Position numbers and translations under genes: made by a program. 64,000 bases of DNA, from NCBI GenBank assembly GCA_905178155.1, contig CAJINV010000009.1, forward strand, positions 2,953,373-3,017,372, written 5' to 3'. Positions 9,001-60,500 of the stretch are shown in pieces (position 1 is the stretch's first letter; each line of letters opens with the position of its first letter). Origin of the DNA: Amoebophrya sp. A120. Lineage: Eukaryota; Protista; Dinoflagellata. The notes below the pieces were generated by a model. The model made no database searches. It was not told the origin of the DNA and was given only the letters and a program-made list of their open reading frames with translations.

Positions 9001-12000
9001 GTCCCGGCCAAGCAAAAGTTGTGGCCAAGAACTTCGCAGCGGTCACGTTTGGCCACCACTTTCCGGGCGGGCAAAAGTGATGGCCAGAAGCTCCTTGCCC
9101 AGCCGGGCGGGGCAAAAGTGAAGACGGCGAAGGGCTCCTTGGCCATCACCTCCGGTCGAGCAAAGTTGAAACTTTTGGCCATCACTTTCCGGCCGGGCAA
9201 AAGTGGTGGCCAAGAGCTTGGCCCTCACTTCCCGGTGGGCCCGCCGTGCAAAAGGGGAGGCCAAGAGCACTTTCGGGACGGACAAAAGTGATGGGCCGGG
9301 GCTCCTTCCTTGGCCATAACTTTTGGCCATCGCTTTCCGGCCGGGGCCGGGCGGGCAAAAGTGGTGGCCAAGAACTCCGTGGCGATCACTTTTTGCCACC
9401 AGTTTCCGGGCGGGCAAAAGTGATGGCCAAAGGCTCTTTGCCCGGCCGGGCTGGGCAAAAGTGACGGCGAAGGGCTCCTTGGCCACCACCTCCGATCGGG
9501 CAAAAGTGAAACTTTTGGCCATCACTTTCCGGCCGGGCAAAAGTGGTGGCCAGGAGTCGGGCGAAACTGATGGCCAGGAGCTGCTCGGGCATGCATCGCT
9601 TTCCTTTCGGGCAAAAGTGGCCACTTTTCGCTCGGGCCAAAGTAATGGCCAAGAGCTCCCTGGCCACCGATCACTTTTGGCCACCACTTTCCCGTCGGGC
9701 AAAAGGGATGGCCAAGAGCTCCCTGGCCACCCATCGCTTTCCGGCCTGGCAAAAGTGATGGCGAAGAACTCTCTGGGTGTCGCCTTTCGGCCGGGCACAC
9801 GTGATGGCCAAGAGCTCGCTGGCCGTCAAAGTGGCCAGCGATCGCAGCTTCTCGGCCGGGCAAAGGTGATGGCCAAGAGCCCCGCGGCCATCGCTTTTCG
9901 CTCGAGCAAAAGCGATTTTGGCCATCGCTTTCCGGTCGGGCAAGAGTGGTGGCCAAGAACTCCGCGGCCATCACTTTTTGCCATCGGGCCGGGAAAATGA
10001 ATGGCCAGAAGCTCCCTGCCCATCACTTTTCGGCCGGGCAAAGAAAAACGATGGCGACAACTCCTTGGCCATCACTTTAACTTTTGCCCACCACTTTCCG
10101 GAGGGACGGGCAAAAGTGGTGGCCAAGGGCTCCTTCCTTGGTTGGCCATTACTTTTGCCCAGCGCTTTCCTGTCGGGCAAAAGTGATGGCCAGTAGCTCC
10201 GCTGCCACCGCTTTTCGCCCGGGCATGCGAAAGTCCTCGGCCATCACTTCTGGCCATCGCTTTCCGGTCGGACGGGCAAAAGTGATGGCCAAGAGCCCCC
10301 TGCCCATGCATCCATTTCCGGTCGGGCAAAAATGATGGCCAAGAGCTCCGTGGCCAGCCATCGACTTGCGCTCGTTGGCCATCATTTTCGTTCCGGGCGG
10401 GCAAAAGTGGTGGCCAACCGCTCCTTGCCCGGGCCATCACTTTCGGCCATCGCCTTCCGGTACGGTCGGGCAAAAGCGATGGCCAAGAGCTCCCTGGCCG
10501 TCATTTTCGACCATCAGCCACTTTCTGCCCGCGCGGGCAAAAGTGTTGGCCAAGAGCTCCGCGGCCACCACTTTCGGGCCGCGCAAAAGTGTTGGCCAAG
10601 TGCTCCATGGCCATCATTTTTGCCCATCATTTTCCGGTCGGGCAACCGGGCTGCAAGAGTGGTGGCCCAGAGCTTCCAGGCAGTCACCTTTTGCCGCCTC
10701 TTTCGTTCCGGCCGGGCACGCTTTTGCTTTCCGCCTTCCTTCACTTTTCTCGCGCACGCTTTTGCCTCTCGGCTTCTGGGGCATGGCATGGGCGGGGGTG
10801 CGCGAGGCAAAACCGCGCGAACAGGCCCCCGGAAGCGTGGGGCTCATCCTCATCAAGGGGGGGGCGGGGGTTTTGTTTGCGCCGGCCGCCGAAGCCGCCC
10901 CAGAATAAACTTCGCAACCGGCCCCCTTCGCTTTGCTTGCCGCGTGCGGCTAAAGGGTTGACGGCGGGCCGGCGTCCTGGACGCCGGACCGCAAAAGGCG
11001 TTAAAGCGGCGATGCCGCTAGGGCAAGCGCAAGCGCGGCAACGCGGCTAAAGGGCTGACGGCGGGCCGGCGTCCTGGACGCCGGACCGCAAAAGGCGTCG
11101 AAGCGGCGAGGCCGCTAGGGCAAGCGCAGCCAGGCGCGGCAACGATCTTCCTCGGGGCAGGCAGCGTCATACTTTTCAACCTTCTAGCCGCATTCTACTC
11201 GACTCCAAGCCAAACCTTCTAAACGCATTCCCATGATCTTTAGAATTATTTTTAAATCTACTAGCCCAGCGGGCGTCCTGGACGCCCGCGTCCAGAGGCT
11301 AGTAATAATAAGCAAACTGTGATGGGTTTTATTTTCTGTGGATATCAATCTCGCGGATGACCGCCCGCCTCAGCGTTTCTCTCCACGACGCAGATATCAA
11401 ATGCAAAAGTGTCTGGGTTTGTCATGCATATTTTGCATGACCCAGAATTATGTCTGTAATGCATGACCAAGCATCACAGATTCTGAGAGGCCTTCCTGAT
11501 GCCTATTCCGCATGACAAATGCCCTCCCCGCGTAGCACAAACTGGACTCCTCGTCTTGCTGGTCATGCAATACAGATTTTTTTACAGTCCAGAGTTAGCA
11601 TCACAAGTTCCAACCTTCCAGACCCAGACATTTTTGCAATCCATAGCAGAAGCGTTTTGCAGGTTTTCTTCTGCTTTCTCCCGGTCGTGGCTATCATTAT
11701 AAGTGGGCTGCGCGTCGTGCTCAGGGTCGTGAAGGTTCCCCGCTGGAGCTGGTGCTGGTGCACTACTGGCATTTATTCCGGCGGCCGCGCCAGGAGAAAC
11801 GGTCCCGTGACTATCGCCAGCAGCAGCTGCAGGTCCTGAAGTAGAAGTACTCATCGAATTAGCAGAATTATCACTACTTCCGATCATATTAAACTTCTCG
11901 TCGGCAACCTCTTCCGCCAGCACTTCCATCTCGTGCGACAAAGCAGACAGACACCCATACGCCTCCCGAGATTGGGTGACCAGACCCGTGTTGCCGTCCA

Positions 12001-24100: not shown

Positions 24101-26941
24101 TGCATCTACTTCACTGATCTTCTTCGCAGATGCAACGACACTGCTGCTGCCGCTGCCTTGATTTTTCATTTCCCGTACTGAAAAATCCGTCCACGCCTTG
24201 TCACTACGACCGTCGAGGAAAACCACGTCAGCAAGGATCTCGGGAACAATAATTGCTTGGTCGTCCAATCCGGCACACATGGGCACGTCGACTTCCCGCA
24301 AGTATTCGCGAAAATTCTGCAAAATCGCGTCCGTGGTTTTCAGTTGGGGACCAGGGTCATCTCCAACAGGAAGATCCTCGTCTGATGAGACCACTGCGCT
24401 GCTGTTCTTTATTGTCATGCTGGAGGTCTTCAGGACGGCATTTGATATACTATCAGCTCCCGGATGAAGCCCGAACATCGTCTCATCAAATTCCCGCTCC
24501 TTTCTCCCGTAGGTCCGGTTGAAAAATCTTGGCGTGCGGCACTGGTATTCGTCCCCAAGGTTTTGCGCCCGCTCGTCCGGACAGAACTGTCTCCGCATCA
24601 TGGGCGTCGCGTCCTCGAAGAGCGCCGGCGTGGTTGACACAACGTTCACGGCGCGCATGGCCACGCGAGTTTCCGGGAAAAGCGTCAGGATCGGAAAGTC
24701 ATCGTACAGGAGAAGGTCGGGCCGCAAGCGGACGAAGTAGGTGAAGCGCAGTTTATTCTTGGAGGTGGAGAAGTTTATTTTGCTGTGATGGTCAACATCT
24801 GGCTGATGTTGATGATCTTTTTCTTCATGCACATCAAGCGCGTAATTGCTGTCCCTATACAGCTCCTGAAACTGCCTCACCCCACGGAAACACGCGTCCA
24901 AGTGCTCAAACTGTCCGGTGAAGGTGGTTAGAGTAGTCGACTCTTTCAACGCTTGCAGTGTCGGCGGTAGCACGACTGGAGATGATGCAGAAGAAGGCCT
25001 CGTTATTTGAACGCCACTTTTTGATGATGCTGGTGAAATTTTCTCCACCAAATCCCCGTAATTTCGCCAGCCCCCCCGGAGAAACCGAACCAAAGTCACC
25101 TTGAAGTCTGGAGTTTTTGCAGCGTGGTCAGCAGCTGGGTTCACCTTTTCTTGCGGTTCTTGCGCCTTCGGGGGTGCTAGAAAGTGTCGGGCCCAGTACC
25201 TAAAAGTTCTTGAATTTTGCTGCGCATCCTACTCATCGTCATACACGAGACGAGTGAGAAAGTACTACAGCACTTGCACATGCAAGGAAAATCGCTACAA
25301 CGAAATACTTACCGCATCTCCTCGTTCGATGCTGACACAACGCGGAGCGACTTCTTCATTCCCCCAGTTGTGGTCTTAGTCGACGTCGCAGCATCACGAT
25401 TTTCACTGTCGTCACTTCTCAGCCCGGTCCTCTCCCCGACTACTTCCAGGTCGGGCCATCCGCACAAGAAAACGTATATCAAAAGGAAAAATCTCCCCTC
25501 CCCATATCGAGAACGAAGTTTGTAGTGCTGTATTTGAGTACACAAATCGACTTGTATTGCTAGAAGGCCAAGAGACGCAGTGGCTCCCTCCTCTGCAGGC
25601 AATTTGTCATGCTGTTTCCCGTTTCCATTTGCCTCCTGTCATGCTGAAGACGGAAGGCTCTCCTAAGCCTCCCAGCACTACAGTCCACTTTTGTTGCCTT
25701 CTAGCATGACAACATGATTTGTGGTCTCAAATCATGCTACACAAATCTCCGCTTCAGTATGGGGAGGGTGGATTTTTCCTTTTGATAACGTAGAAATGAA
25801 ACTCGGTACTAGTCTTCGGATCCGCGCTTCTCACGTTCGGCTCCATCAGAAACCGCCTCATCCGGCCGGCGACCGACCAGATCTTTTCGTAATCCACGAC
25901 CCGCGTTCCCCAAACGTTGAAATACCGTTTTTCTGCGCTGCCGCAGATCACCAGAGCGATATTTAAGATTTTTTTTGCACCTCTTGTGGACGTTCGTCGT
26001 GGCGCAACATCAGCGTCCTCCTTGGTGGTGACATTTTCCCCAGTACCAAAGGGCCCCCAATACCGCAGCTTTTGCTCCGCCGCCCGTTTCAGACTCCTGC
26101 CCGGAAATGAAGATGATGTTCTTGACGCTGAAGATGAATACGTCGACGTCGTCCCGTGGGTAGTTGTAGAACTAGAAGAAGCGCTCGATATAATTATTTC
26201 CCGCATAGGCTTCTGCCCGAAATGGTACTCGTGCCGGTACTCTCGCGGGTTTTCTTCCTGATACAGGTCGTAGTTTTCATCTTGCTCGTCATCAGCAGGT
26301 AGGTGTGTCGAAGTAGAAGTAGATTCATCCAGGTCGTAGTTTTCATCTTGCTCGTCACCAGCAGGTAGGTGTGTCGAAGTAGATGCGTGTGCACTTCCAC
26401 CTACTCGACTAGTACCTCCCCGTCGTGAAGTAGTACTGGTCCACACCAGCTCTTTTTCAAATCTCTGGTCGTAAAAGTAGAAGAGCGGAAGCTCCTCCTT
26501 TTCCGCGATGGTGTGCCCTTCCCCGTAGATGAAAGCGGTTTGTTCCGGATCGGCTTCATCGGGACGTTCAGCTGGGTGGGTTAGTCCCTGTTGCGCGTGC
26601 GCTTGGGTTGGAGAACTCGCGTCTCCTCCTCCTGCTGCTTCGAGAACTACATCCGAAGATGTTGACTCCACAAGTTCATCTCCCGTTTTGTTTCCTCGTG
26701 CGACAAGCAGGAATTGTGGAAAACACAAGGCAGACACAAACACGCGGCGCAACAAGTGTGTACGTCGTACACACAGCAAACACGACGACAGGAAACCGAA
26801 ACCCTCAGACACCGCAAATAAACTCCGCGACGAAGCCGGACTGGTAAAGGCGGGCATTCTTTTTTCTCGTCCCTCAAATGAGAAGAGAAGGGATAGAGAA
26901 CCACTCTTGCAAGAGCAAAAATAAAAAAACGTCTCAATCAC
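21188..26941 (-). CDS. Putative GT-A-like glycosyltransferase (DUF7796/WavE-like), multi-exon
   Basis: Spliced frame carries, in order, NIALVICGS, FHFYVFL, GQFEHLDACF, FTYFVRLRPDL and GLDDQAIIV, the motif series of the '...RxRPD...DQ' putative glycosyltransferases, plus an N-terminal hydrophobic stretch. Five introners and one probable GT-AG intron (25200-25312). Ends ...MKWVNEAEL-stop at 21188. Family call is by eye. Confidence 0.65.
21264..21542. mobile_element. Introner, family E
   Basis: tatcctgagtaaaaacgt...acgtttttactcaggata; TSD ggttg/ggttg. Confidence 0.92.
21603..21939. mobile_element. Introner, family D (opposite orientation to 3217-3537)
   Basis: tatcaaacggaaaaatccccc...ggagattttcccttacaata; TSD gtctt/gtctt. 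Confidence 0.9.
22491..22797. mobile_element. Introner, degenerate family A
   Basis: tatgcactgcaaata...tatttgcaatgcata; TSD gtgcc/gtgca; joins YDAMH|PLGFND. Confidence 0.82.
23133..23386. mobile_element. Introner, family A
   Basis: tatcaaatgcaaaaatgtctgggtctggaa...cacttttgcaatccata; TSD atctc/atctc. Confidence 0.92.
25200..25312 (-). other. Probable canonical GT-AG spliceosomal intron
   Basis: Minus strand atgcg|GTAAGT...cttttAG|gtactgg removes an in-frame stop and joins NEEMR to YWARHFL; the acceptor choice is inferred. Confidence 0.6.
25477..25787. mobile_element. Introner, family D
   Basis: tatcaaaaggaaaaatc...gatttttccttttgata; TSD acgta/acgta; joins FHFYV|FLCGWP. Confidence 0.92.
26264..26383. 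repeat. In-frame tandem duplication with a 66-bp period, encoding STSTHLPA(G/D)DEQDENYDL twice
   Basis: caggtcgtagttttcatcttgctcgtca(t/c)cagcaggtaggtgtgtcgaagtaga at 26264 and 26330. Confidence 0.85.
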
Positions 26942-33394: not shown

Positions 33395-33949
33395 CTTGTA
33401 ATAATTTGGGTGCTCAAAATTTTTGAAGAGTTGGCTTTGGTTTATTTGATAGCGGTACTAAAAGCTTGTTCCTTGGCACTTTCTACAATACATTAGGTGC
33501 ATTTGTCATCTTCATCTCTGTGTCGTCGTATTGATATGGGATTCCGATCTTCCTGGCAGTGCAGTCGTCGTGAAGCAGGTGTTGAAAAAAAAAACTCAAT
33601 AAACTCAAAGATTCCGTCCCCGATTGTATCTGAACCAAAACTTCTTCATTTGAAATGATTGGGACCGGACCGACAGAACACTTTTTGCGTTCGGTCTGTT
33701 CGTCCATTTTTCGACATATGGTCCCAGAGTCTTCACATCTGCATTTTTCAGCTAGACTACGGCAACTTCGATGTTGATTTCCATTGACGGCGTTTGTTGC
33801 GAAATAAACATCCACTTTCGGTCTATGATAGCATTTTTTTTCTTATTCTTTTGGTTTTGCTTTTGCGTTCGACTAGCTCTTCCAAAATAAACTGAAACTC
33901 ATATCAGGCGGACAGGAAAAATGATACAGGAAGTGGGTGATCGAGCAGA

Positions 33950-36049
33950 CTATGACTTTTTCATCCCACTATTGCCACTACCACGCGTCGACGAAGAAGT
34001 ACTACTGTTTGTATGGCAGCGAAACGTGATGCTGATCCGCCTGTAGTCCTTCCCTTTTACCCGATTATTTTCCGGAACAGGGGCAACACAGTGCTCGAAT
34101 TCTTCTTGAAATTTCCCATGGAAAAGCGTGAAGGACCCGTGCGGCAATAGTATTTCACCCGATTTGTCATGCAGCTTTTCCATGACCCATGAGGTCTGGA
34201 ATGCAGGACATAGCATGACAGATTCTGCGCGATCTTTCCCATGCCTGTCCTGCATGAGAAACTGCCTCCCGACTTGGTCAAAACAGGACGACTTTTGGTA
34301 ATCATGCAACACAGATTTTTGCATGCTTCAGATTTAGCATGACAAGTGGGATTCTTCCAGACCCAGACATTTTTACAGTTGATATGGAAAAAATCTTCCG
34401 GCACGAGCTTTTGGCGGAAGTGGTACATGACTGTTCCCTATGCATTGCAAATATGTCTGGGCCCTCCTCCTCTGGAAGGTTGGAACTTGTCATGCTAAAT
34501 CTGAATCATGTCAAAATCATTGTTGCACAATTGCCAAATAAAGCTGTCCAGTTGTGACCTAATCGCGATGCACTTTCTCATGCAGAATAGGCATCATAGG
34601 ACTATCACAGAATCTGTCATGCTATGTCCTGCATACCAGACCTCATGGGTCGTGGAAAACCTGCATGACAAGTCTTGTATTCTTCCAGACCCAGACACAG
34701 TGCTCGAATTCTTCCTGAAATTTCCCATGAAAAAGCGTGAAGGACCCGTGCGGCAATAGTATTTCGCCCGCTTTTGCGGTGAGACCACCGATTATACCGT
34801 TCTTCCCATCTTGTTCCTCACGGTGCATTTTCGCACTAACAGTCGCTGCTTTACCATCTGGGGCTTTTTTCCTTCTTTTTGCGGCCGAGGACTCTCCACC
34901 TGCATCCATTTCTCCATCGGGCGCAGCCGGTGCGGTTTCATTTTCCCTCTTCGCAGCTTGTCCTCCGGAGGTAGTAGTAGAAACGGGCTTCCACTTGAAT
35001 TTCCTGTCGCAATTGCCCAAACTGAGCATGACCACAGGGAAACGACAGTCGTGTCCGGTTCCCTTGTCCGAATGGAAATTGATGGAGTCTTGCGGGTCTT
35101 CGTAGAAATTCACTAAAGCGACGTTGTAGAAGGGTCTGGTCCCGTCTGGGGAATAGACCATCACCTGTTCTAGGGAGTTGACCATCGTGAATAGGCCCTT
35201 TAGCAGGGAGGAGGTATTTTTCGTGCCACAAGGCGATCCAGTGAATTCGTCACGCGATGATGAGTCGCTGTCTTCCACCTCTTCCCCGACTAGGCCTAAG
35301 GAGGAAGATGTTCTCGGGCCATAATCTTCCGGCCTTTTAGTTTCTTGCGCAACTATTGGTGGTGCTGACCGTGACCCTCTGTTTTTGCCGTTGTCTAAGC
35401 CCCTATAATTGTTGGCGTCACCTACTGCAAATCCTGCTTCATCGTCTTCTCTATCCTCCAGGTCGAAAATTGATTCGCTCACGAGGTTGTTCGACCCGAT
35501 CTTCAGCTTCCACGGTTCCATACAGTGTCTTAGTAGATTATGTTCCGAGTCATCTTCATCTGCCGGACATCGCATTGCCACGCACGTCTCATAGTAGTGC
35601 AAGAACCGGATTTTCCGTTTCAACTCGTGCTTTTTCCCGTACAGTGTGACCTCTTGCCGCTTCTCCGGGAGCAACTGTCGCCATAGAAACTCGAAGAGGT
35701 CTCTCACGTAAAGCTGGTCAAACAGGTCGCCACTTTCAGCGTCGGAAGCATCAAATTCCTCTTGCAAAAGAGGGCGCCGGAGATTCTCGAGTAGCTCAGG
35801 TACGCGAAATTGCTCTCGATATACACCATGCTGCAAAGAATCCGTTTTCAGCTTGTTCAGGAAGTGCAAAAATGGGGTGATCAGAATGCCGGAATTCTGC
35901 GAGAGGCGCATGTAGATCTCGGAGTCGTCTAAAGCGTCATTGCCGTCTTCGTGGAGTTTCTGTTCGATTTCTTGAACCAGACTTGAGTTGGAAGAAAATT
36001 GTCGGGTGTCTACGAATTCGTCCTCGCCGGAGGACGAGGATGCTGACAT
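33950..36049 (-). CDS. AlkB-family (ALKBH2/3-like) 2OG-Fe(II) dioxygenase
   Basis: VNFYEDPQDSINFHSD (HxD), VVMLSLG, LLPHGSFTLF...FEHCV (distal His) and RRISITFR (RxxxxxR); interrupted by a composite insertion flanked by a 76-bp exon duplication. Confidence 0.88.
34162..34694. mobile_element. Composite insertion: two truncated family A introners flanking a 54-bp foreign exon fragment
   Basis: Left element lacks its left TIR and ends ...acagttgata at 34384; right element starts tatgcattgc at 34439 and is cut inside its right TIR; flanked by direct repeats 34086-34161 and 34695-34770. Confidence 0.8.
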
Positions 36050-45541: not shown

Positions 45542-48500
45542 CTAGGATCCCTCCGCCGGTGCCGGAGCCTCCGCCGCCGCCGCATCTCCCCCGCCACCCT
45601 CTGCGGCTGGAGCCGCCACCGCCACCGCCTCCCCCTCGGCTGGCGCTGCTGCCGCGGGTTCTTCCGCTTTTTTCTCCTCACTTTCTGCTGCAGCTGGTTC
45701 TTCCTTTTTCCCCACTTCCGCTGCGGGTTCGTCTTTCTTTTCCTCATCTGCAGGCTTGTCTTCTTTCTTACCGGCAGCTTCTTTTGCAGGAGGAGCTTTT
45801 CTATCACCTCCATCCTTCTTACTATCCGCAGTCTCACCCTCCGCCCCCTCTTCCAAAGCCTTCTTGTCCGCTTCTGCAGCCATACTTGCCGAGGAGGCTA
45901 AGACCACCACCATCAACACCAATAACCCGATCCCGACACACGCGCCGCCGATGATCGCCATGTTGCCTTTTTTCTTCTTTTCTTCCGCTGTGGTGTTTGT
46001 CGCGTTAGTGGTGTTGGTGGAGGAAGTAGAGTCTGACTCTTGATCTCCACCGCCACCAGCTGCTGCTTTGCCACCGTTCTTGCCGGAACCACCTCCTCCA
46101 CCGCCACCTTTCGGCCCTGGCGACGTGGGCACCACTATGGTATTCGAGTTCACCATGGTGAGTCCATAACTCGTTAAACTCGCAACGTTCGCCACCTCCA
46201 CGGATATATCAACTGTAAAAATGTCTGGGTCTGGAAGATTCTGACACTTGTCATGCACGTTTTGCATGAGCCATGGTGTCTGTGATGCATACCCTAGCAA
46301 TACAGATTTTTTGAGGGCTTCTTGATGCCTATTCCGCATGACAAATGCCTTCTCAGCGTAGCAAAAATTGCATTCCCTTTGGTACTCATGCAATACAAAT
46401 TCTCTTGGGAATCCAAATGCAGCATCACAACTTGCATTCTTCCAGACATTTTTGCACTTGGTAGGATATGTCCGCGAGCAAACTGGTATACGCTGCGCTT
46501 CCTATTACAGTGAAAAATGCCCCCACCCCAGAACTTGCGAGCATTTGTATTGCAAACCTTTCCTATGGAAACACACCCCGTCTTGCATATCTCAGCTATG
46601 GCCCCCTCAAAACGTAAGTTTTCAACTCGTAAGTGCGCTACCCAACTATTTTGCATAAAATTACCACTTTTTTTTTGGTTTTTCATTTTTCGCAAAAATA
46701 GCTATTTTCGATGAAAAATTGCAAAATGTCGACTCCGATGATTTCGCTAAAAGTAGCTACTTTACAAAAATAGCTTGATTCATTTTTAGCATGCTCAGCT
46801 CATCATTAGCTAGGACCCGGGCCGGCGACGGAGAGGTGAGGAGACGGACACACCAGGCTGCTCCGGGAAGCGCGTGTGGGAAATGGAGATCATGTTCTTG
46901 CAGCTGCTCCTTGAAGCGAGTATGGGAAACGGTGATCATTTTTTCGCTCTATGATTTGCAACAAAGTAGCTTTTATTCGGAGCCAGGATCTACAAGTAGT
47001 TTGACGAGCATTCACTTCTTCTACACATTCGCGCACGTGCATGCTGTGAGCCTTTGGCATGGAAAACAGGGCCGCTCGACGCCTTCGCGAATACAAAAAC
47101 AGGCTTCTTTTTGTGCTTGTGGGCGTCTATAAGTGACGCAGAGGTGAGATATTTGGGATGCCCACGCCCCCGCTACGAAGTGAAAGCGTCCAGCTCCGAA
47201 CAAAAGCTGTGGCGCAAGTCATAGACCTCCGGAGCCCGACAAAGCCAGTTTCTTGCTGATTTGGACGGCCTGAACCACAGCGGCAACAGTGGCGCCATCG
47301 TCGAAAAACCTCACAAATGCCCACCAATGGAAGACCGTTTTGCATCGTAAAAAGTGCCCCTTTGCATCTGAAGAAGCTGCTTCTACAGCTTCTGGGCGTC
47401 GGTCGGAAGCTAAAAAAAGGCAAAAAACCTGCCCGCGCATGCACAAAGTAAGGCACTTCATCTGCTGCAGCTGCGCCCGCATCTGCAAGGGATCTAGGAT
47501 CTCGAACCACCTCGCAGGACCAGCCGCAAGGGCCCCGGGTGTCGAAATTGGTCCTCCACAGGCAAGGCGTTTTTGATGCTTTTTTCCAATGATAGCCGTC
47601 CACAACTCGCCTCCTGCCGACCAATGCTGTGCCCTCGCTGTTCGACAAACATTGGGCCGGGCGCATCGCGGCTCGGCGCAACCGGCCCGGCGGCATTGTG
47701 CGCAACACCACCACCGAGCCGGGGCGGGCGCTTGCCGCCCCAATGCGCAACCCCCGGCCGCGCGCCCGGCCCGGGCGCAGCCCGCAGCGCGCCGCCAAGC
47801 CTGTGGCGCCCGCCCGCCCGTGTGCGAGGCGCTTGGCCGGTCTGCCGGGCGAGTGGCCCGAGCTGGCGGCAGGGGGCGACATGTGCCGGCACTGTCCCGC
47901 ACTCGCCGCCCGTTGAGCAGCGGCGGGGCTAGGCAGCCGGCCGAGCAAAGCAAAGGAGGCGAGAACAACCCACGCCCCGTCAATTCATGTCCGCTTCGCG
48001 CAGACAGAGCGCACAAAAAACCAACGGCAGAGCCTGGTGGCCGCCCGGCCCTTTGCAGTGGTTCTGCCTTTGCGGGGGGGGGGGATCGATTCGAGCCGGC
48101 CGGCGGCCGGCGACAAGCGTGCAAGAAGCAAGGCCGGCCGCGCGCACTAGATAGCTTGCTGAATGGCACCAAGTGGCCCCCCCAAGGGCAGGCTGGGAGC
48201 GAGTGAGGCGGGGGCCGGCTGGCCGGGCAACAGGGAAGCGCGCGGGGCCGGGGCAGGCTAGCAGGCCGGCGGGGGGCTGCGCCGGCCGGCTTCGTTCCTT
48301 CCGACACCGACAGACGGGGGGTCGGCTTGCGCGGGAACCTTCGCAGAGACAAGGGCCACCACCAAGCGGGCGCCCGCGCGCCCCGTCTGAAGGCTGGCAA
48401 AAAACCGCCGGCCGCGCGGGGGGGTCGGCCCCTGCTTGCATAGCAATTCGCGGCCCGTGCGTGGCTCCTCCATTATTTGCCAACAAGTGGGGCGCCCGCT

Positions 48501-51500
48501 AACGTCGCAAAGCATTTCCATAGGGAGCGCGCTCGCTATTTGTAAAAAAAAATTTACAACAGGCCGCGCGCTGTTTGTGCGAACACTTTTACCGGGCGCG
48601 CGCTACTTGTAAAATTTTTTTTACAAATAGACCAGCCGGGCCGGAGGGCCCATGGCAAACGGGCCGGCGCCGCGGCCTTTCCCATATACACCCATCGGGC
48701 GGGTGGGGCGGAGGGGGGGCGGCAAGCCGTTGGCCGACCTCTGGCCCGCCCGGGGTGGTGGTAAGGTGGGGGCTAACGCGCTTGGGGAAGGATTTGTAGT
48801 TCCGTGGGCCGAATGCTTGAAGCCGCGCGCTACCTGCGTGCGCCCACATGAGGCCGCCCCCCCTCCATGTGCATGCTGCCCTTCCCCGACTAGACGCGGG
48901 GCCAGAGGGCCCAGTCACGGCCCTCTGCCTGCCGTCGCCCGCGGGCCGTCTGAATGTGCCGCGCGTGTTTGTTTTTCTTTGGCCCGGTTTTTCCGCCTTT
49001 CGCGCCATTTGTTGTGGGGGCGGGCGACATGCGCCGCGCCCACACACAGGTGCCCCACAAGCTACAGGCAGCGGGCCCCGCTCCCCCAACTACAGACGGG
49101 GGCGGGCCCACACGCAGGAGACGATGCACCGGCCCAAGCCTGGCCAGGCTCGCGCCCATGCATCGGCCCCGCGCCCCGCTTCCTAGCTGGGGCGGGCCAG
49201 CAGGGTGCGCCAGCGGCTTCGGCTATGCTTGCTTACGTAGAAGCCGTCCGGGGAAAGCGGGCGAGCTAGCTAGGCGGGCCCGCCGCGTTTCCGGTTGCGG
49301 GCTAGCAAGGCTAGGCAAGCTGGCCCACAAGCAAGCTAGCAGCTGGCGCCCCGACAGGTCTCCGCGCTGCCTGGGCCAGCTGCACGCACCCGCACGCATT
49401 TGGCCCGCCAGCGCCCCTCGGTGAGTCGGTGGGTTGGGCAACTACCGGGGGCGCCCGCCTAGGTGGGTGCGGCCGTCCGTCGGGGCAGCTGCTTTACGGC
49501 CCGCCCCCCCCCGTCGCTCGCCGCCCGGCCAATTGGTTCGCGTAGCTTGCCGGCCCGGCCCGGTAGGTTCACGCGCTCGAGCTCGGCCCGGCTCCGCTGT
49601 GGGCTTTGCCGAAATGCCTGTGGCCCGGCCGCCCAGCCACGCACCAGCGAGGGGGCCTGTCCGAAGCAGTAGCTTGGCGACCAGCTGCGCGGGCTGGGGG
49701 CGGCGCTTTCTATCTTCCCAGCGATGGACGGCCCACAACAACCCGCTGCAGTCGGCCCTGTGTGTCCCATGTTCGTTGCCCGCGCCGGCCCAGCAGCCGC
49801 TTCGCGCGGCCGGTCGGTGCGTGCTTTGGGCGGACCATCATGCGCGCCCGCAGGTAGCTGGCCCAAAATATTATGGAGCGCAGCTAGCAGGCCAGGACCG
49901 GAGTGGGTTCCCCGGCAGGCTGCGCGCATCTTGGTGCTGTGCCAACTGCACGGACCGCCCGCATTTTGCTGCCTCGCAGGCATGCAGCCCGGCGCGGCCA
50001 TTTCCGTGCGGCGCCCGCCCATTGGCCGCGTGGCCCCGATGCGTTGGCTTACAGCCACCCCGCCGGCCGCGCGAAGCGGGCCGGCGAGCTACGGGAGCCA
50101 ACCCCCTTCCGCTAGTATGTTAAAAATAAAAAACCAAACCACAGGTGGCCCACGCGCAGGCCCCCCGTTCCCAAAGAGTTCGCCGGCGCCGCGCTTCGCG
50201 GGCGTGCGTCGCTCCGCTACATGCGGCAAAACCTAGCGGGGCCGCCTTCCAGCTTGCTCTACGCAGCAAGCCGGCCGGCCCGGTAGCCGCTGGCTGCGCG
50301 TAAAATGGAAAGGCGCCAGCGATGGGGGCCGGCTTCGCGCGCCCCCCCCGCGTTCGAGAGCCTGGAGCCGGGAGGCCGCCTGGCTTTTGAACCGGGCTCA
50401 GGGTTCAGGGCTCAGAGGGCGCCGGCGCGCATGCAGATTGATGCTTGGGCCGGCCGCCCGCAGCGGGGTAGTAGCGAGCGCAGCGGCCCCATTTGGCCGG
50501 CAGGCCAGAATGCTTGCCGGTGGCCCAGCTCGGTCCGTGTTTCGCGGCGCTTTTTTTTCCCAGAATGCTCTGCGCCCCACGAGGAATCCGAGGGCCAGCT
50601 TTCGGCGTGCTATTCCTGATCCAAAAGCGGCGGGCCCAGCACCCTTGACGCCCCGCGCAGCAACCTGGCTAGCGGACAAAGAAACGCCAACGATATTGGG
50701 CGGGGGGGGGCTGGCCCACCGCCTGGGCGCCGTGCCTGCCATTACCTGCCGGCCCCCTGGCTGGGGGGGGCCGTATTTTGCCCCGCGGGCTCACGCGCTT
50801 GGCGGTAGCCGCATTCGCCTGCGCGCCTGCTCAAGCTGTTGTGGTTGGCCTGCAGGCTATGTCCGTGCGCGCGCGCGCCGGCGGGGGGGCCGGGTCACTG
50901 ACTTAACTTCACCTCGGACGCGGCGGGCCCACGCCGGCAAGCCCTCGCGCCCCTTGGGCCAGCTTGGCGCGCCCGCATGCCTGCGGCAAGCCGGGCAGCT
51001 ACATGGAGTGGGCCGGCCGGCTGCTCACAATGGGCGGCCAGTTGCTTGGCTGGGCAGGGTAGGTCGGTCCGCCGCGCGGGGCGGTGGCGTGAGTGTGTTG
51101 GGCCCGAATATTGGCGGGCCGCACAACGGAGGTCCCCCGCGCTATGTATTTGGGCCAGGTCCCCGCGCCTGCTGGAGGTCGCTGGCCGCTGTTGCACGGG
51201 GCCCCCACCTGGCCGGCCGCCTCTCAGCCCCCAACCTGCCTGGGTAGGCGGCGGGGCGCGCGCGGGCCGTTCGGGCACATGGGCCGAGTACTCGCGCCCC
51301 ACATGTAGCGGGCCAGGAGGGCGGCGCCGGCCTTGGGGGCATGTGGCCACGAGGGGCGGGGGACAGCGTGCGCCGGCAATTCGGCGACAACAGCTGGCCC
51401 CTTCGCTGTATTTGATGACGGGCCCACCCCTGATCGCAGGGGCCAGCCCTATCCGTCTGGCGGCCCAGCTAAGTGGCCCAGCGCGCCGCATGCGAGCGCC

Positions 51501-54500
51501 ACGCTTTTGGCTGGCCCCGCCATCCAACGCGGCAGCCGCTCCGCCCGCTGCGAGCGAGCGCCCCCCCGGCCCGTTGTGTGCCTGCATGTAGCTGGCCAAC
51601 CGGTTGCACGTAGGTGCCGCGGCCGCGAAGTATTGAAGCGCGGCGCGTGTGTCCAGTTCGCCAATTATGAGGCCACATCCGGGCAGCCGGGTGGCGGGCC
51701 AATAAGAGGGCGCCCGGCCGCTTGGGCTAGCCAAGGAAATGCGGCCCGCCCCAGCATTAGACTACCCGCCAAAGCCCGCCGGCAGATCCCAGCACCGCCT
51801 GGAACAGCTACGCGCCCGCCCCCCCGCATGTAGTTGGTGTGGGCCTCCCTCCCGTCCCAGCAGCGTCCGTCGGCGGGCAAGAAACAAAGAGCAGATGGCA
51901 AATCTGCCAAAGCGAGACCGCCTGCTATGCGGGCCGCCTTGCCTTCATACCGGGCCCGCCCATGATGAAGCCCGCCCGGGCCCCAGCTATGTGCCCAGGG
52001 CCAGGTGCGTGCGCCCACACGTGCGCGGCCCCCCCCCCTCGCAACTGCATGCAGGCAGCTGCGCCGCCAACTAGACGGGCCCGGCTCGCCATCCCTCTTC
52101 GCAGAGTTCGCGCAGCAACCATAGGGGCCCACATGAGGCCGGTCGGAATCGGCCACGCATCGCGTTGCCCGAGCCGACTGCGTGCGACGCATGTTGCTGG
52201 GTCGGCCGTCAGCTATAGGGGGCCGGCGCCCAGCTTGACGCCCGCGATGCGCGCCCGTGTTTCTGCGATTGCGCGCGCGAGCTCAACCGCAGAAGCATCT
52301 CACGGCCGCGATTTCTAATTTTTCGCGAGGTTTATGTTTGTCGTCGACAAACACAAATCTCGGGAAAGTTGGAGGCCCTCAACTCGTAAGTGCGCCCACC
52401 ACTAGAGAAAATTTGTGTGGAGCGCACTTACGAGTTGAGAAAAGTGCAGCACACCATCGGGGGTGCGATTGAAATGCTGCATTTTTCTCAACTCGTAAGT
52501 GCGCTCCACACAAATTGTCGAGAGCGCAGCGAGAAATTTCGCAACTTTTTCCAGAGCAAATCCAGAAAAGGTTGCGAAATTTCTCAGAAATAGAAAAAAA
52601 GGGCGGAAATGGGCGCCGGCGGGCAGGCTCCGCCCGGTTGTGTGTGGTTGCGTGCATGTGGCTCGTCCATGTAGCTCACCCTCCAGACCACACCAGCCAA
52701 GGCTAGGAAGGCGCCGACCTCCTAACTATAGCTGAAGGACGGACCAACAACATGCGGCGCACCGTGGTGGGATCAACGGTTGGGAGGCGCGGCCGGTTCA
52801 AACAGGCTCCATGTGTGCCCCCATAGTAAGCTGCTGCGCGAACTCCGTAAAGAGGGGCGTTGGGGCCCGGTGCCTCTAGTTCGGGGGGCGGCTTGTTGCG
52901 TGCAGCTGCCGGGCCACAACAAGCGAACGGCGCGCGGCCACACCTGCCTGGCTTCGAGCCGAACAAATGGGGGCCGGGCGGTTTTCGTCGTACTTGGGCG
53001 CGCCAGGCCGGGCGGTGCGCGGCCCGTGTGGCAGGCTGGCGCGCTTGGGCAAATTTCTTCACCGAATCGCCTCGCGTTCTTTCTGGCGCTGGTGGCAAAA
53101 TGCACGGGATGGCGCGTAGTTGCTCCAGGCGATTTGGGAAATTGCCGACGGGCCGGGACGGGTAGGTTGGTAGCTACTGCGTGGCTGGGCGGGTTGCGTT
53201 TGGCGGGCCCCCGCGGCCGGGCGCATTGTTATTAGCAGGCCCGCCGCCCGGCTTAACGGATGCATGTGGCCACTATAGTTGGCCAACCGAAGGAACATAC
53301 GCAACGAGCCGCGGCCGGCGGGCATTTCGTACCCGCGGCGCGCCACCTACGTGAGGCCGGCTGGGAAAAGACAACCAGGCGCGCAACGCGCGGGCCGGTC
53401 GCAAGGGGCGGGTGGGGCGGCTGCCAAGCCGGGGGGGCCATCCAAAACAACGCGCGGCGCACGCGGCTGGGCCATGCAACTGGCCCGCCAGGTGCATGCA
53501 GCTGGCCCCTACGATTAGTTGCGGGCCCGTCCAATCCAAACTGTGGACGAGGGGCCAGGCGCTGTCGCCGACATGCAGGCGCATGTTGCTTAGCGTAGCC
53601 CATCACGGTCATGCGCCTATTGAAGCAGGGGCCCTGCTACCTTGGTGCCGCGAGTTAGTCAGGACTGGGCCCTTGTGGCGGGGTGGCCCGCGAGCGCGCC
53701 GCCGCTTGCCCAGGAGAGGGGCCGACTGGGGTGGGGGGCCCATGCTCCGGCAACGCGGCTAGCGACCCCCACCGGGCCGGCGCGGGGGCCTGCGGCAAAC
53801 AGCGCGACAGGCTTTCGCAGCGCGGTCCAGCTATATTAGGACCCCACTCACACCACCGCCCCACGCTATGGGCCTGCCCTGCCCAGCCAACCAGCCGCCC
53901 GCCGTGAGTAGCTGGCCGCCCTGTTGCAGGCGTGCGGGAGCGCCAACCAAGCTGGCCCAAGCGCTGCGCCGCAAGGGCTTGCCGGCTTGGGCAGGCTGCC
54001 TGCGCCGGGGGTAAATTCAGTGAGTCGGGCCCCCCGCCGGCGCGCGCGCGCACGGAGCGGACGCAGCTTGCACGCAGCCCGGCTGCTGCTGCAGCAGCTA
54101 GCTCGCCAGCAGGCGCGCTGGCGCATCCATGCGGCTACTTCAAAGCGCGGGAGCCCGCTGGCCAAATTGCGCCAGCAACAAACATGCGGGCTATGGCCAT
54201 GGGGACTGCAAGCCACGGGATGCTTGCGCCAGAGTGGGCCGGCCCGCCCCGTGCCGCTGGTGTTCGTTGGTGCGCTAGGTTGTTCCATCGATGGAGTCGC
54301 ATTGGCGGCGTGCCCACCGCCTTTGGATAGCTACTCAGGGGGGAGGAACGCCGGCGCAGGGCCAAAAAAATCGCCGCGAAACACGGACCGAGCTGGGCCA
54401 CCGGCAAGCATTCTCGCCTGCCGGCCAAATGGGGCCGCTGCGCTAGCTGCTAACCCGCTGCAGGCGGCCGGCCCAAGCAACAAGCAAGCTGCATGCGCGC

Positions 54501-57500
54501 CGGCGCCCACTTGGGCAAGTTGGGAACCCTGAACCCGGCCCAAAAGCCAGGCGGCCTCTTGGCTCCAGGCTCTGTCTCGAACGCGGGGGGGGGGCGCGCG
54601 AAGCTGGCCCCCATCGCTGGCGCCGTACGTTCCATTTTACGCGCAGCCAGCGGCTACCGGGCCGGCCGGCTTGCTGCGTAGAGCAAGCTGGATGGCGGCC
54701 CCGCTCGGTTTTGCCGCATGCAGCTGAGCGACGCACGCGAAGCGCGGCGCCGGCGGACTCTTTGGGAGCGGAGGGCCTGCGCGTGGGCCGCCTGTGGTTT
54801 GGCCTTTTCTTTTTTATCATACTAGCGGAAGGGGGGTGGCTCCTGTAGCTCGCCGGCCCGCTTCGCGCGGCCGGCGGGGTGGCTATGTGCCAACGCATCG
54901 GGGCCACGCGGCCAATGGGCGGGCGCCGCACGGAAATGGCCGCGCCGGGCTGCATGCCTGCGAGGCAGCAAAATGCTGGCGGTCCGTGCAGTTGGCACAG
55001 CACCAAGATGCGCGCAGCTTGCTTGCAGGGGAACTCACTCCGGGCCTGGCCTGCTAGCTGCGCTCCGTAATATTTTGGGCCAGCTACCTGCGGGCGCGCA
55101 TGATGGTCCGTCCAAAGCATTCACAGACCGGCCGCGCGAAATGGCTGCCGGGCCGGCGCGGGCAACATGGGACAGGGCCGGCTGCAGCGGGTTGTTGTGG
55201 GCCGTCCATCGCCGGGAAGATAGAAAGCGCCGCCCCCTAGCCCGCGCAGCTGGTCGCCAAACTACTTCGGGCAGGCCCCCTCGCTGGTGGTTGGGCGGCC
55301 GGGCCACAGGCATTTCGGCAAAGCCCATAGCGGAGCCGGGCCGGGCTCGAGCGCGTGAACCTACCGGGCCGGGCCGGCAAGCTACGCGAACCAATTGGCC
55401 GGGCGGCGACAGGGGGGCCGGGCCGCAAAGCAGCGGACCCGACGGCCGCACCAACCTAGGCGGGCGCCCCCGGTAGCTGCCCGGCCCGCCGATTCACCGA
55501 GGGGCGCTGGCGGACCAACTGTGTGCGCGCGCGTGCAGCTGGCCCAGGCAACGCGGAGAACTGTCGGGGCGCCAGCTGCTAGCTTGCTTGTGGGCCAGCT
55601 TGCCTAGCCTTGCTAGCCCGCAACCGGAAACGCGGCGGGCCCGCCTAGCCCGCTCGCCCGCTTTCCCCGGGCGGCTTCTATGTAAGCAAGCATAGCCGGT
55701 GGCGCACCTTGCTGGCCCGCCCCAGCTAGGAAGCCAGCGGGGCGCGCGGCCGATGCATGGGCGCGAGCCTGGCCAGGCTTGGGCCGGTGCGTCGTCTACT
55801 GTGTGTGGGCCCGCCCCCGTTTGTAGTTGGGGGAGCGGGGCCCGCAGTGTGTAGCTTGTGGGGCAGCTGTGTGTGGGCGCGGCGCATGTCGCCCGCCCCC
55901 GCAACAAATGGCGCGAAAGGCGGAAAAGCCGGGCCAAAAACAAACACGCGCGGCACTCACATGTAGACGGCCCGCGGGCGACGGCAGGCAGAGGGCCGTA
56001 GTTGGGCCCTCTGGCCCCGCGTCTAGTCGGGGAAGGGCAGCACATAGAGGGGAGGCGGCTTCATGTGGGCGCACGCAGGTAGCAGCTTCAAGCACGTGGG
56101 CCACGCAACTACAAATCCCCAAGCGCGTTGGCCCCCACCTTACCACCACCCCGGACCAGAGGTCGGCCACCGGCTTGCCGCCCCCCCTCCGCCCCACCCG
56201 CCCGATGGGTGTATATGGGAAAGGCCGCGGCGCCGGCCCGTTTCTTTGCCATTGGCCCTCCGGCCCGGCTGGTCTATTTGTAAAAAAAATTTTACAAGTA
56301 GCGCGCGCCCGGTAAAAGTGTTCGCACAAACAGCGCGCGGCCTGTTGTAAAATTTTTTTTACAAATAGCGAGCGCGCTCCCTATGGAAGTGTTTTGCCAC
56401 GTTAGCGGGCGCCCCACTTGTTGGGAAATAATGTATGGAGGAGCCACGCACGGGCCGCGAATTGCTTTGCAAGAAAGTAGGGCCCCGCCCCCCCGCGCGG
56501 CCGGCGTTTGCCAGCCTTCAGACGGGGCGGGCGCCGGCTTGGTGGTGGCCCTTGTCTCTGCGAAGGTTCCCGCGCAAGCCGACCCCCCCTCGTCTGTCGG
56601 TGTCGGAAGGAACGAAGCCGGCCGGCGCAGTCCTCCGCCGGCCTGCTAGCCTGCCCCGGCCCCGCGCGCTTCCTTGCCGCCCAGCCAACCTGCCAGCCGG
56701 CCCCCGCCTCGCCTGCTCCCAGCCTGCCCCGGCCTACAACTTGGGGGGTCCACTTGGTGCCATTCAGCAAACTATCCACCGCGCGCGGCCGGCCCTGCTT
56801 CTTGCTTGTCGCCGGCCGCCGGCCGGCTCGAATCGATCCCACCCCGCAAAGGCAGAACCATTGCCAAGGGCCGGGCGGCCACCAACCTCTGCCGTTTTTT
56901 GCATGCGCGCTCTGTCTGCGCGAAGCGGACACGGATGGACGGGGCGTGGGGTGTTCTCGCCTCCTTTGCTTTGCTTGAGTGATCGGCTAGCTACCTAGCC
57001 CCGCCGGCCGCTGCTCAACGGGCGGCGGGCGCGGGACAATGCCGGCACATGTCGCCCCCCGCCGCCAGCTCGGGCCACTCGCCCGGCAGACCGGCCAAGC
57101 GCCTTGCACACGGGCGGGCGGGCGCCAAAGGCTTGGCGGTGTGCTGCGGGCTGCGCCCGAGCCGGGCGCGCGGCCGGGGGTTGCGCATTGGGGCGGCAAG
57201 CGCCCGCCCCGGCTCGGTGGTGGCGTTGCGCACAATGCCGGCGGGCCGATTGCGCCGAGCCGCGAGGCGCCCGGCCCAATGTTTGCCGCACGTCGAGGGC
57301 ACAACATTGGTCGAAAGGAGGCGAGCTGTGGACGGCTATCAATGGAAAAAAGCATCGCAAATGCCTTGCCTGTGGCGGACCAATTTGGACACCCAGGGCA
57401 CTTGCGCCTGGTCCCGAGGGGTGGCTCTAGATCCTAGATCCCTTGAAGATGCAGACGCAGCTGCAGCGGATGAAGCTCCTTACTTTGTGCATGCGCAGGC

Positions 57501-60500
57501 AGCTTTTTTGCCTTTTTTTAGCTTCCGACCGATGCCAAGAAGCTGGAAAAGCAGCTTCTTCAGATGCAGAGTGGCACTTTTTACGATGCAAAATGGTCTT
57601 CCATTGATGAGCATTTGTGACGTTTTTCGACAGTGGCGCCATTGTTGCCGCTGTGATTCAGGCCGTCCAAACCAACAAGAGGGCGTCTTTGTCGGGCTCC
57701 GGAAGTCTATGACTTGCAATACGGCTTTTGTTCGGGGCTGGATATTTTCACTTCGTAGCGGGGGGGCGGGCATCCCAAATATCTCGCTTTTGCATCACCT
57801 ATAGACACCCAGAAGCCTCTTTCTGTATTCGTGAAGGCGTCGAGCGACCCTATTCCACATGCCAAAGGCACACAGCAGGCACGCACGCGCGCGACTATGT
57901 AGAAGAAGCGAACGCTCAGACTACTTGTAAATCCGGGCGCCGAATGCAAGCTACTTCATTGCAAATCATAGAGCGAGAAAATGATCTCCGTTTCCCATAC
58001 TCGCTTCAAGGAGCAGCTGCAAGAACATGATCTCCATTTCCCACACGCGCTTCCCGGAGCAGCCTGGTGTGTCCGTCTCCTCACCTCTCCGTCGCCGGCC
58101 CGGGTCCTAGCTAATGATGAGCTGAGCATGCTAAAAATGAATCAAGCTATTTTTGTAAAGTAGCTACTTTTAGTGAAATCATCGGAGTCGACGTTTTGCA
58201 ATTTTTCATCGAAAGTAGCTACTTTTGCGAAAAATGAAAAACCAAAAAAAAAGTGGTAATTTTATGCAAAAAAGTTGGGTAGCGCACTTACGAGTTGAAA
58301 ACTTACGTTTTGAGGGGGCCATATCAGCACCACAAATTTTCCAAACTGAATAGCTCAAATTTGTGTTGCAAAGGAGCCCAACAGCAGCCGGATCTCTTAT
58401 GCAAAAGACACCTTGCGCACCTAGATTCTGCACCAGAAAGGCTCGCAATCCTTTCATGCATCAAGACAAAAAGCTTTTATTTGGAAACTTTGCATGAGAA
58501 ACTTTTGTAACTTCCGGGGTGGGGGCATTTTTCATTGCAGTACTACCGTCGTCCAGTTTTGTGACCGCTTGCGACGCGGAGCTCGTCGACATCCAAGCGG
58601 TGTTTAAGGCTGCGGATTGGGCGGACGTGGCCTGGATGCCAAACTCGACGTAGACTCTCGCGTTAGTAGTCGATCCAGATGACTCGGTAGACGATTTGGC
58701 TGTCTTGCGGAGAAGCTGCACGGCAGAGAGAATCGGTCGCTGGTCTTTCGGTCCTCGACGTAGTTCAGCATTGATACTGTTTTGCTTTTGGACGACGTGA
58801 TTTCTACTATTACTTTCTTCCTCATACCGCAGCACCCTGGTGCTTGTGTTTCTTCTCTTCTTTCCCGCCGCTGCGGGTGAACCACGAACATCTTCCCCTT
58901 TTTCCAGAAACGAAGCCGATGACCCTCCGTCCGCGGATATCTCCGAAATAAAAGCCGCTGCGGCGGAAGAACTAGTAGGGCTCCCAACGCTCCACGCTAA
59001 ATTCAATGACACAACTTGATCCTCGGTTAAATCACTAACCCCGCCCTCGTCCTGGAACCACTTCACAATCCCAGTCCGCAGCGCGTTCTTGAACCTATGG
59101 ATTGCAAAAATGTCTGGGTCTGGATCTGGAAGATTGTCATGCTAAATCCGAATCATGCAAAAATCTGTGTTGCATGAGTGCCAAAAGCTGTCCACTTTCG
59201 ACCAAGGAAGTTGGGAGGGAGTTTCTCATGCAGGATAGGCATGAAAGAGACCTCACAGACTCTGTCATGCTAGGTCCTGCATTCCAGACCTCAAGGGTCC
59301 TGGAAAACCTGCATGACAAGTTTACACTCTTCCAGACCCAGACACTTTTGCATTTGATAGAACCCTGCGTCAGACAAAACCGCTTGCAAATCGCCCTGCG
59401 CCGAGCCGGAGCCGCTATTCGCCAAATCCAACCCAAGGTCGACTTTCCGCAACTGGACGTCTTGCCTCGCTTGAGTGTGCTTCTTGATCACTAAGTTCTC
59501 AATACCCGCGGCCGCCACTTCATCCTGCTCGACGTGAACCAAAGCGGAATACTCCCCCTCGTCGTCGTCCACATGCTTCCAAATGTCATCAACCGCCTGC
59601 TTCTGCTCATCCGAGTTCGTTTGGATTTCGAAATGAACATCCAGCGTTTCGTCCTTTTTTGTCGCGTTGTAATCGGTGAGGACGAAAATGAGAACCTGAT
59701 TTTCCTCCAAATGCAGACTATCAAATGCAAAAATGTCTGGGGCTGGGAGATTCTGAGACTTGTCACGCACGTTTTGCATGAGCCATGATGTCTGTGATGC
59801 ATGCCGTAGCATCACAGATTTTTCGGGGGGTTCTTAATGCCTATTTCGCATGACAAATGCCCTATCCGCGTAGCAAAAATTGCATTCCCTTTGCTACTCA
59901 TGCAATACAAATTTTTTTGGAATCCAAATGCAGCATCACAAGTTGCATTCTTCCACCAGACCCAGACATTTTTGCATTTGATACAGACTGTCGTCCGTGA
60001 GTTTCATGTTGGTGTAGTCAACCACGCCCTTTTTGATCGCTTCTTCAAACGTAATGTTGTGCGCCGCAACAGTGACGTTCTCGTCGCTTGGTGCTGTTTC
60101 GAGGAACTGATGATGTTGCAATTTGCCAAGGCGCCTCGATGTTGTTTTCGCCAATAAGCTGCTGAGCGAAGATGAGTCACTTTCCGTCAGTTCCAACTCT
60201 ACCTCGAAGCCCCCGGAAACCTCGGATTTGGTGGGCGACGGACTGGGGGACGGGCTTGGCGATGGGGATGGGGATGCTGGTGTTGGAGATACTGGTGCTG
60301 GTGTTGGCGCCGCTGTTGTAGTCGTCGAGGTTGTACTTGTTGTGGTTGTAGTGGGCAAAACCGGATAGAGCTTCAAGTTCAAACTAGTAATATTCGCCAG
60401 ATCCACTTCGTACTGTTCCAAATCGACCAACGCCCCGTACTCGCTACTACTCAAATCCGCTACCATGTTCCAGATTTCTTCCACTTTCTCCGCCTGCCGC

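Follow-up and report, generated by a model that had tools for sequence, protein, structure and literature searches.

How did a piece of one gene's coding sequence come to lie between two introners inside another gene, and does the host gene still give a product? This question is raised by a 64,000-nucleotide stretch of the Amoebophrya sp. A120 genome (the window), in which 54 bp of a Cys/Thr-rich surface-protein gene recur within a gene for an AlkB-like 2OG-Fe(II) oxygenase, the two loci being 28 kb apart. The features involved are listed below in window coordinates.

33950-36049, minus strand: AlkB-like 2OG-Fe(II) oxygenase gene (Pfam PF13532), the host of the insert
34086-34161, minus strand: downstream copy of a 76-bp AlkB coding repeat, running on into the normal 3' end of the gene
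34162-34384, minus strand: introner A, with its tip at 34384 intact and ~40 nt gone on the AlkB side, as judged by alignment with 12 complete copies
34162-34694, minus strand: composite intron as drawn in the published gene model, with a length of 531 nt and three neighbouring boundary placements, none of them GT-AG
34385-34438, plus strand: 54-bp copy of an exon 2 segment of the surface-protein gene, antisense to AlkB and forming the hairpin loop in the predicted fold
34439-34697, plus strand: introner B, with its tip at 34439 intact and 14 nt gone on the AlkB side
34695-34770, minus strand: upstream member of the 76-bp AlkB repeat pair, at an offset of 609 from the downstream copy
61694-61750, minus strand: natural 57-bp spacer between two introners of opposite orientation in the surface-protein gene, a precedent for the layout proposed for the donor
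62627-62680, minus strand: sequence resembling the source, within exon 2 of the surface-protein gene, with introners absent at both sites

The copied segment and its counterpart in the surface-protein gene

The segment at 34385-34438 agrees with 62627-62680, taken in reverse complement, at 52 of 54 bases (in a BLAST comparison within the 64-kb window, its alignment with the 62.6-kb gene covers 55 bp at 96.4% identity, E 1.9e-20). Both mismatches, at 34419 and 34425, are silent (Glu GAG/GAA and Val GTG/GTA), the 18 encoded residues are identical in the AlkB-locus and 62.6-kb copies, and none of the ~43 non-silent sites has changed, in agreement with the two synonymous differences reported in a preliminary description of this DNA. 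The same description held that the 62.6-kb copy is intronless at the two corresponding positions, and indeed its open frame is continuous across both sites with no introner at either. In a self-comparison of the window, this match and an 80-bp direct repeat at the AlkB locus are the only long pairs of high identity, repeat families and two tandem repeats aside.

The 62.6-kb gene probably encodes a surface protein, judging from its hydrophobic N-terminus and Cys/Thr-rich repeats. A Pfam scan of two of its exons gave no match, a protein search with exon 1 found no relative among 2881 longer candidates, and comparison of exon 1 with representative proteins returned three matches, namely two unrelated repeat proteins and a distant A120 paralog at 30% identity. 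CAD7960422.1, whose gene number differs by nine from that of the AlkB gene on the same scaffold, is a distant (24-30%) paralog of the N-terminal Cys-rich domain of the surface protein, and its annotated end appears to run into an introner. The surface-protein gene also holds an introner of another family (62794-63015), which has a degenerate end (not ATA) and has kept its 5-bp duplication, as well as a pair of inverted introners (61441-62019) that lie 57 bp apart, fold together at -0.48 kcal/mol per nt, nearly the strength of the AlkB composite, and might be spliced as one unit, with the micro-exon between them skipped. Given this pair, a donor with an intron-micro-exon-intron arrangement would be ordinary for this gene.

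At the AlkB locus, the 54 bp does not serve as an exon: the piece is antisense to AlkB, lies inside the annotated intron and is missing from the published protein CAD7960404.1, which rules it out as an AlkB exon.

Introners A and B

The window contains 12 complete copies (251-269 bp) of the family to which A and B belong. All 12 keep their tips and an exact 5-bp target duplication, and 22 of their 24 ends start with TAT; an inverted-repeat family that starts with TAT and has short direct repeats is described for A120 in the available part of Farhat et al. (2021, PMC7789003). Copies in both orientations occur inside one gene, and the summed depth over the family (1e5-1e6, compared with 25) implies very many copies. 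Introners A and B are 58-82% identical to the 12 complete copies (the 82% being that of A to the copy at 59096) and, taken singly, both qualify as A120 introners. They stand back to back and each is without its outer tip. At their inner ends, the terminal 25 nt agree with the best of the 24 family ends at 25/25 and 24/25 positions, and the joins with the 54 bp fall exactly at the intact element tips; B has a 9-bp insertion in the terminal repeat at its intact end. The preliminary description therefore located the introner termini correctly at 34384 and 34439, but, instead of a right and a left end, they represent one element end seen twice. Gene conversion between A and B, considered for the 62/66 match of their outer parts, was rejected because the copy at 59096 matches them at 60/66 and 61/66. 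No further copy of the composite was found in the 64-kb window.

A simple scan of 124-61751 identified 24 elements, belonging to several families, that have terminal repeats and an exact duplication of 5 bp. Nearly all of them start with TAT, and this shared start points to one transposase type that may serve many families. The 11.7-kb element at 46597-58323 is GC-rich (reaching 70%), has TAT...ATA ends and is framed by a target duplication of exactly 5 bp (TCAGC). Its inverted arms of 5.2 kb are 82% identical, and it is a giant foldback element with the end signature of the introners.

The host gene, its internal duplication and the outer joins

The insert, with AlkB sequence on both sides, measures 533 bp. 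Both parts of the host gene match PF13532, the upstream part with E 1.7e-10 (profile positions 94-169) and the downstream part with E 8.2e-8 (profile positions 148-194), so that the profile spans overlap; the upstream part is 100% identical to CAD7960404.1. The repeat responsible for 76 bp of duplicated coding sequence can be extended to 80 bp at the cost of a further mismatch (34162). The two copies differ at 34106, 34121 and 34157, all silent third positions, and share a longest identical run of 35 nt; base 34162 at the A join, if counted as a fourth difference, makes a Ser/Ala change. Microhomologies of 4 nt (judged by the closest family copy) and 3 nt are seen at the outer joins, with chance probabilities of 0.016 and 0.051, a modest excess over chance; both are short and rest on the inferred original ends of the elements. 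Two tandem duplications elsewhere in the window, at 26261-26383 (57 bp, 96%) and 10946-11144 (~100 bp, 91%), possibly reflect the same tendency to local duplication.

Relatives of the AlkB protein in the protein searches were limited to the A120 record itself (one of 7996 and one of 1703 candidates), with no single-copy ortholog. None of the 62 candidate stretches was confirmed in a scan of metagenome contigs with CAD7960404.1, a PDB sequence search with the AlkB protein gave no match, and the single-sequence fold of CAD7960404.1 was uninformative (pLDDT 33.9).

The composite intron and its predicted product

The published gene model treats the composite as a single new intron, and 26 amino acids occur twice as a result. 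Three neighbouring 531-nt cuts reproduce CAD7960404.1 exactly (cuts of this length alone were tried). The published protein has 522 residues and keeps both repeats as a 26-residue tandem duplication, compared with 496 residues for a form with one repeat; the duplicated segment surrounds what we take to be the distal metal-binding His. When the insert is read through unspliced, the frame stops at residue 468, ahead of the final RISITFR strand, which presumably holds the 2-oxoglutarate-binding arginines.

Since A and B form an inverted pair, a single hairpin is expected of the insert. For 34080-34780 the predicted fold is indeed a single long hairpin with the 54 bp as its loop (-347.7 kcal/mol, z -18.7 against 20 shuffles), and the composite reaches -0.57 kcal/mol per nt compared with -0.32 to -0.44 for the 12 single copies. 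The widest hairpin pair lies 25 nt from the intron's annotated 5' end and 4 nt from its 3' end; the 5' boundary is ~22-24 nt outside the stem, and the two boundaries have one letter in common. With its non-GT-AG boundaries and a predicted hairpin joining its ends, the composite resembles the non-canonical introns of Amoebophrya. As one unit, it has neither a TAT inverted repeat at both intron ends nor a direct repeat of 3-5 nt at its boundaries, and TGGAA and TTCCC, which had been interpreted as target-site duplications, find no partner at the outer ends.

According to the available part of Farhat et al. (2021, PMC7789003), the A120 models of non-canonical introns were derived from assembled transcripts (k=51) aligned by BLAT, and the annotation pipeline kept the longest frame per locus. 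Since the repeats share no more than 35 identical nt, a cDNA with the 531-nt junction should have existed; since the longest frame was kept, the 496-residue form could coexist unnoticed. Splicing of the composite intron is likely partial.

Sequencing runs at the AlkB locus

Four of the 11 listed runs were compared over 33600-35400. Run X1 is DNA-like, with even depth (24.8 and 26.1) and exact contigs on either side of the insert and a second haplotype is not visible; X1 may be the source sample and hence not independent. We treat X3-X6 as RNA by a guess supported by zero depth at 33600-33721, compared with 24.8 in X1, while X9 is raw RNA that contributed 211 reads only, all of them partial matches inside introner A. 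Contigs of X1, X3 and X6 begin or finish at the edges of the 35-nt run (34151, 34156, 34731, 34736 and 34760), which we read as both repeat copies being present in the reads. An X3 contig extends across the B/AlkB join at a depth of 36.4, compared with 58-61 for the exons, so intron retention would be substantial in this presumed RNA run. In X6, depth over inner B is 1.1 at 34515-34575; contig gaps as such prove nothing. Among the matches listed for X1, X3, X6 and X9 over 33600-35400 there is no spliced 531-nt joint, and none of the listed contigs covers either inner join or the A/AlkB join.

One contig each in X3 and X6 carries the 54 bp with the flanks of the 62.6-kb gene, so a gene copy intronless at these sites is present there. 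An exact 115-bp piece of B has a depth of 48.7 in X1, compared with 24.8-26.1 for single-copy DNA, and a B-like contig of X3 has one letter unlike B and 10 letters unaligned at the 9-bp insertion of B. There seems to be a second near-identical copy of B, which could be an in-genome donor or just a sibling; the latter may apply, since 97 pairs of identical introners are reported for A120 in the available part of PMC7789003.

Origin of the insert

Missing outer tips, the lack of a 5-bp duplication, joins at microhomology and the 76-bp duplication together argue for a templated insertion and against capture by a transposase. We propose, with a probability of roughly 0.6, that the insert arose by one template-switching event that copied a surface-gene donor. 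DNA synthesis would have left the AlkB gene, copied a clipped introner, the 54 bp and another clipped introner from a copy of the surface-protein gene with two extra introners, and returned to AlkB 76-80 bp behind its point of exit, thereby duplicating a stretch of coding sequence. With the introners inverted, the insert would fold as one long hairpin and be removed as a single non-canonical intron; the spliced protein would carry the 26-residue duplication, and transcripts that retain the insert would end translation at residue 468, ahead of the last conserved strand.

No donor turned up in the window, where the 54 bp alone has a source, and the protein and metagenome-contig searches gave no other allele or close paralog. 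Nevertheless, the earlier suggestion that an intron-exon-intron segment was copied from another copy of the gene still gives the simplest reading of the exact inner tips, the natural 57-bp pair and the silent differences. Counting the 54-bp pair and the AlkB repeats together, all five clear differences are silent transitions; based on these five changes, such an outcome has P = 0.004-0.02 if in each pair one copy was freed by the event, 0.04-0.13 if selection continued on both AlkB repeats and the 54 bp alone was freed, and 0.06-0.15 with a paralog as donor. Another working haplotype of the same chromosome is the most likely donor, otherwise a paralog; the haplotype is favoured because it explains the five silent differences and the two extra introners together. 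This version takes about two thirds of the probability given above to template switching. It would imply intron presence/absence variation among copies of the surface-protein gene, as the preliminary description had suggested. A120 is suggested to be heterothallic, with meiosis genes expressed and zygotes not observed (10.1101/2025.04.10.648098, available part). That two diverged haplotypes took part in a single repair event, and that a working intron was thereby made from two decapitated introners and a scrap of foreign exon, the full account in all its parts, is offered tentatively, at clearly less than even odds.

The introner-linked capture put forward in the preliminary description, taken as a transposase event, would be a composite transposition of the Pack-MULE or Pack-TIR kind, in which the introner-exon-introner unit moved as a whole and its outer ends eroded later. 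The insert is in fact bounded by inverted members of an active terminal-repeat family whose inner tips are intact, but both outer tips are gone and the duplication is of 76 bp instead of the 5 bp kept by 12 of 12 complete copies, so that two separate erosions and a separate duplication would be required; we consider this improbable. Somewhat less improbable, although still unlikely, is a stepwise history with no second allele. The 62.6-kb gene could have lost both introners after the copy was made, or a longer intron-free piece could have been copied, gained both introners and been trimmed by deletions; the silent differences would then reflect age, with the AlkB repeats under selection. Clean intron loss is known in general, and both repeats are in frame in the annotated protein and could both be selected. 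Such a history, however, requires two precise losses or two deletions, and it leaves the non-coding 54 bp unchanged at all ~43 non-silent sites (P 0.04-0.15).

Could the repeats instead have misled the assembly into linking pieces that do not belong together, or two haplotypes from a mixed culture? The introner family is multicopy enough for this, and none of the listed contigs spans the whole stretch. Yet the flanking contigs of X1 (which may be the source sample) have a single even depth and no alternative letters, contigs of three runs end at the shared 35-nt run, the X3 contig crosses the B/AlkB join, the transcript-based gene model requires both repeats, and the assembly was checked with Nanopore reads (PMC7789003, available part); a misassembly is thus very improbable. 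A less remote alternative accepts the proposed DNA event and regards the gene as largely broken, most transcripts stopping early and the 531-nt intron being a rare product or a skip over the hairpin by reverse transcriptase. We do not expect this, but it is a possibility to be taken seriously: B is retained at the AlkB join in RNA-like X3, the hairpin is very stable, and a pipeline keeping the longest frame would favour the 531-nt-spliced form. On the other hand, the annotated boundaries have a single letter in common and the 5' boundary is well beyond the stem, whereas we would expect a skip to use the 76-bp repeats, and X6 is nearly without depth over inner B, with the above reservation on contig gaps.

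Comparison with known systems

The following comparisons refer to the systems as described in the available parts of the respective papers. On the template-switching reading, the AlkB composite behaves like a templated-insertion cycle and like an intron gained by break repair, with a resemblance to gap-filling Pack-TIRs. It shares with the Amoebophrya introners (Farhat et al. 2021, PMC7789003) the TAT inverted repeats of A and B and the non-canonical hairpin intron, but it consists of two clipped back-to-back elements around foreign exon DNA, is without terminal TAT or a 3-5-nt direct repeat, and measures 531 nt compared with a 240-nt average. As in templated-insertion cycles (Li et al. 2020, PMC7025897), a segment would be copied from elsewhere and the return would re-replicate a stretch of the host (here 76 bp); those cycles are known from cancer genomes, whereas this one would be sub-kilobase, heritable and apparently rescued by splicing. 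Single-copy Pack-TIRs that arise through transposition-independent gap filling (Tan et al. 2021, PMC8277862) likewise capture nearby sequence at terminal-repeat elements with breakpoint microhomology, but their filler lies inside one element between its ends, whereas here two elements enclose the gene piece with their intact tips and the microhomologies occur at the outer joins, where the insert meets the host gene. In contrast to Pack-MULEs and multicopy Pack-TIRs, the composite has neither intact outer terminal repeats nor a target duplication of the family length.

Intron gain by double-strand-break repair in Daphnia (PMC4202315) also yields a new intron through a repair-type insertion with flanking direct repeats, and the gapC intron of Euglena agilis (PMC4770533), with 8-nt direct repeats, is likewise repair-type and structure-defined. 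The AlkB composite differs from both in that its repeat is of 76 bp and, in the gene model, stays in place when the intron is taken out, and in that the source of its filler can be identified. Among the papers listed in our literature search, there was no report of an introner-flanked exon capture or of such a composite; the supplementary material of the introner work could hold one.

Implications for intron recognition and genetic exchange

How Amoebophrya recognises non-canonical introns without U1 is presented as an open question in the available part of PMC7789003. The AlkB composite is a natural deletion test in this respect, being an annotated intron that has the hairpin and is without the terminal motif and the short repeat. 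Confirmation that it is spliced would make the question directly testable at one locus; if the proposed account is true, a long hairpin can set Amoebophrya splicing without a terminal motif or a short direct repeat. As this is a single event, its general weight is moderate. Confirmed splicing would also mean that repair insertions, and duplications inside proteins, can be survivable thanks to abundant introners. If the two-haplotype reading is true, the insert preserves an allele with two introns now missing from the strain, and it is a trace, left in the sequence, of genetic exchange in a parasite for which sex is unobserved. Differences confined to silent sites would then offer a way of looking for past exchange between strains.
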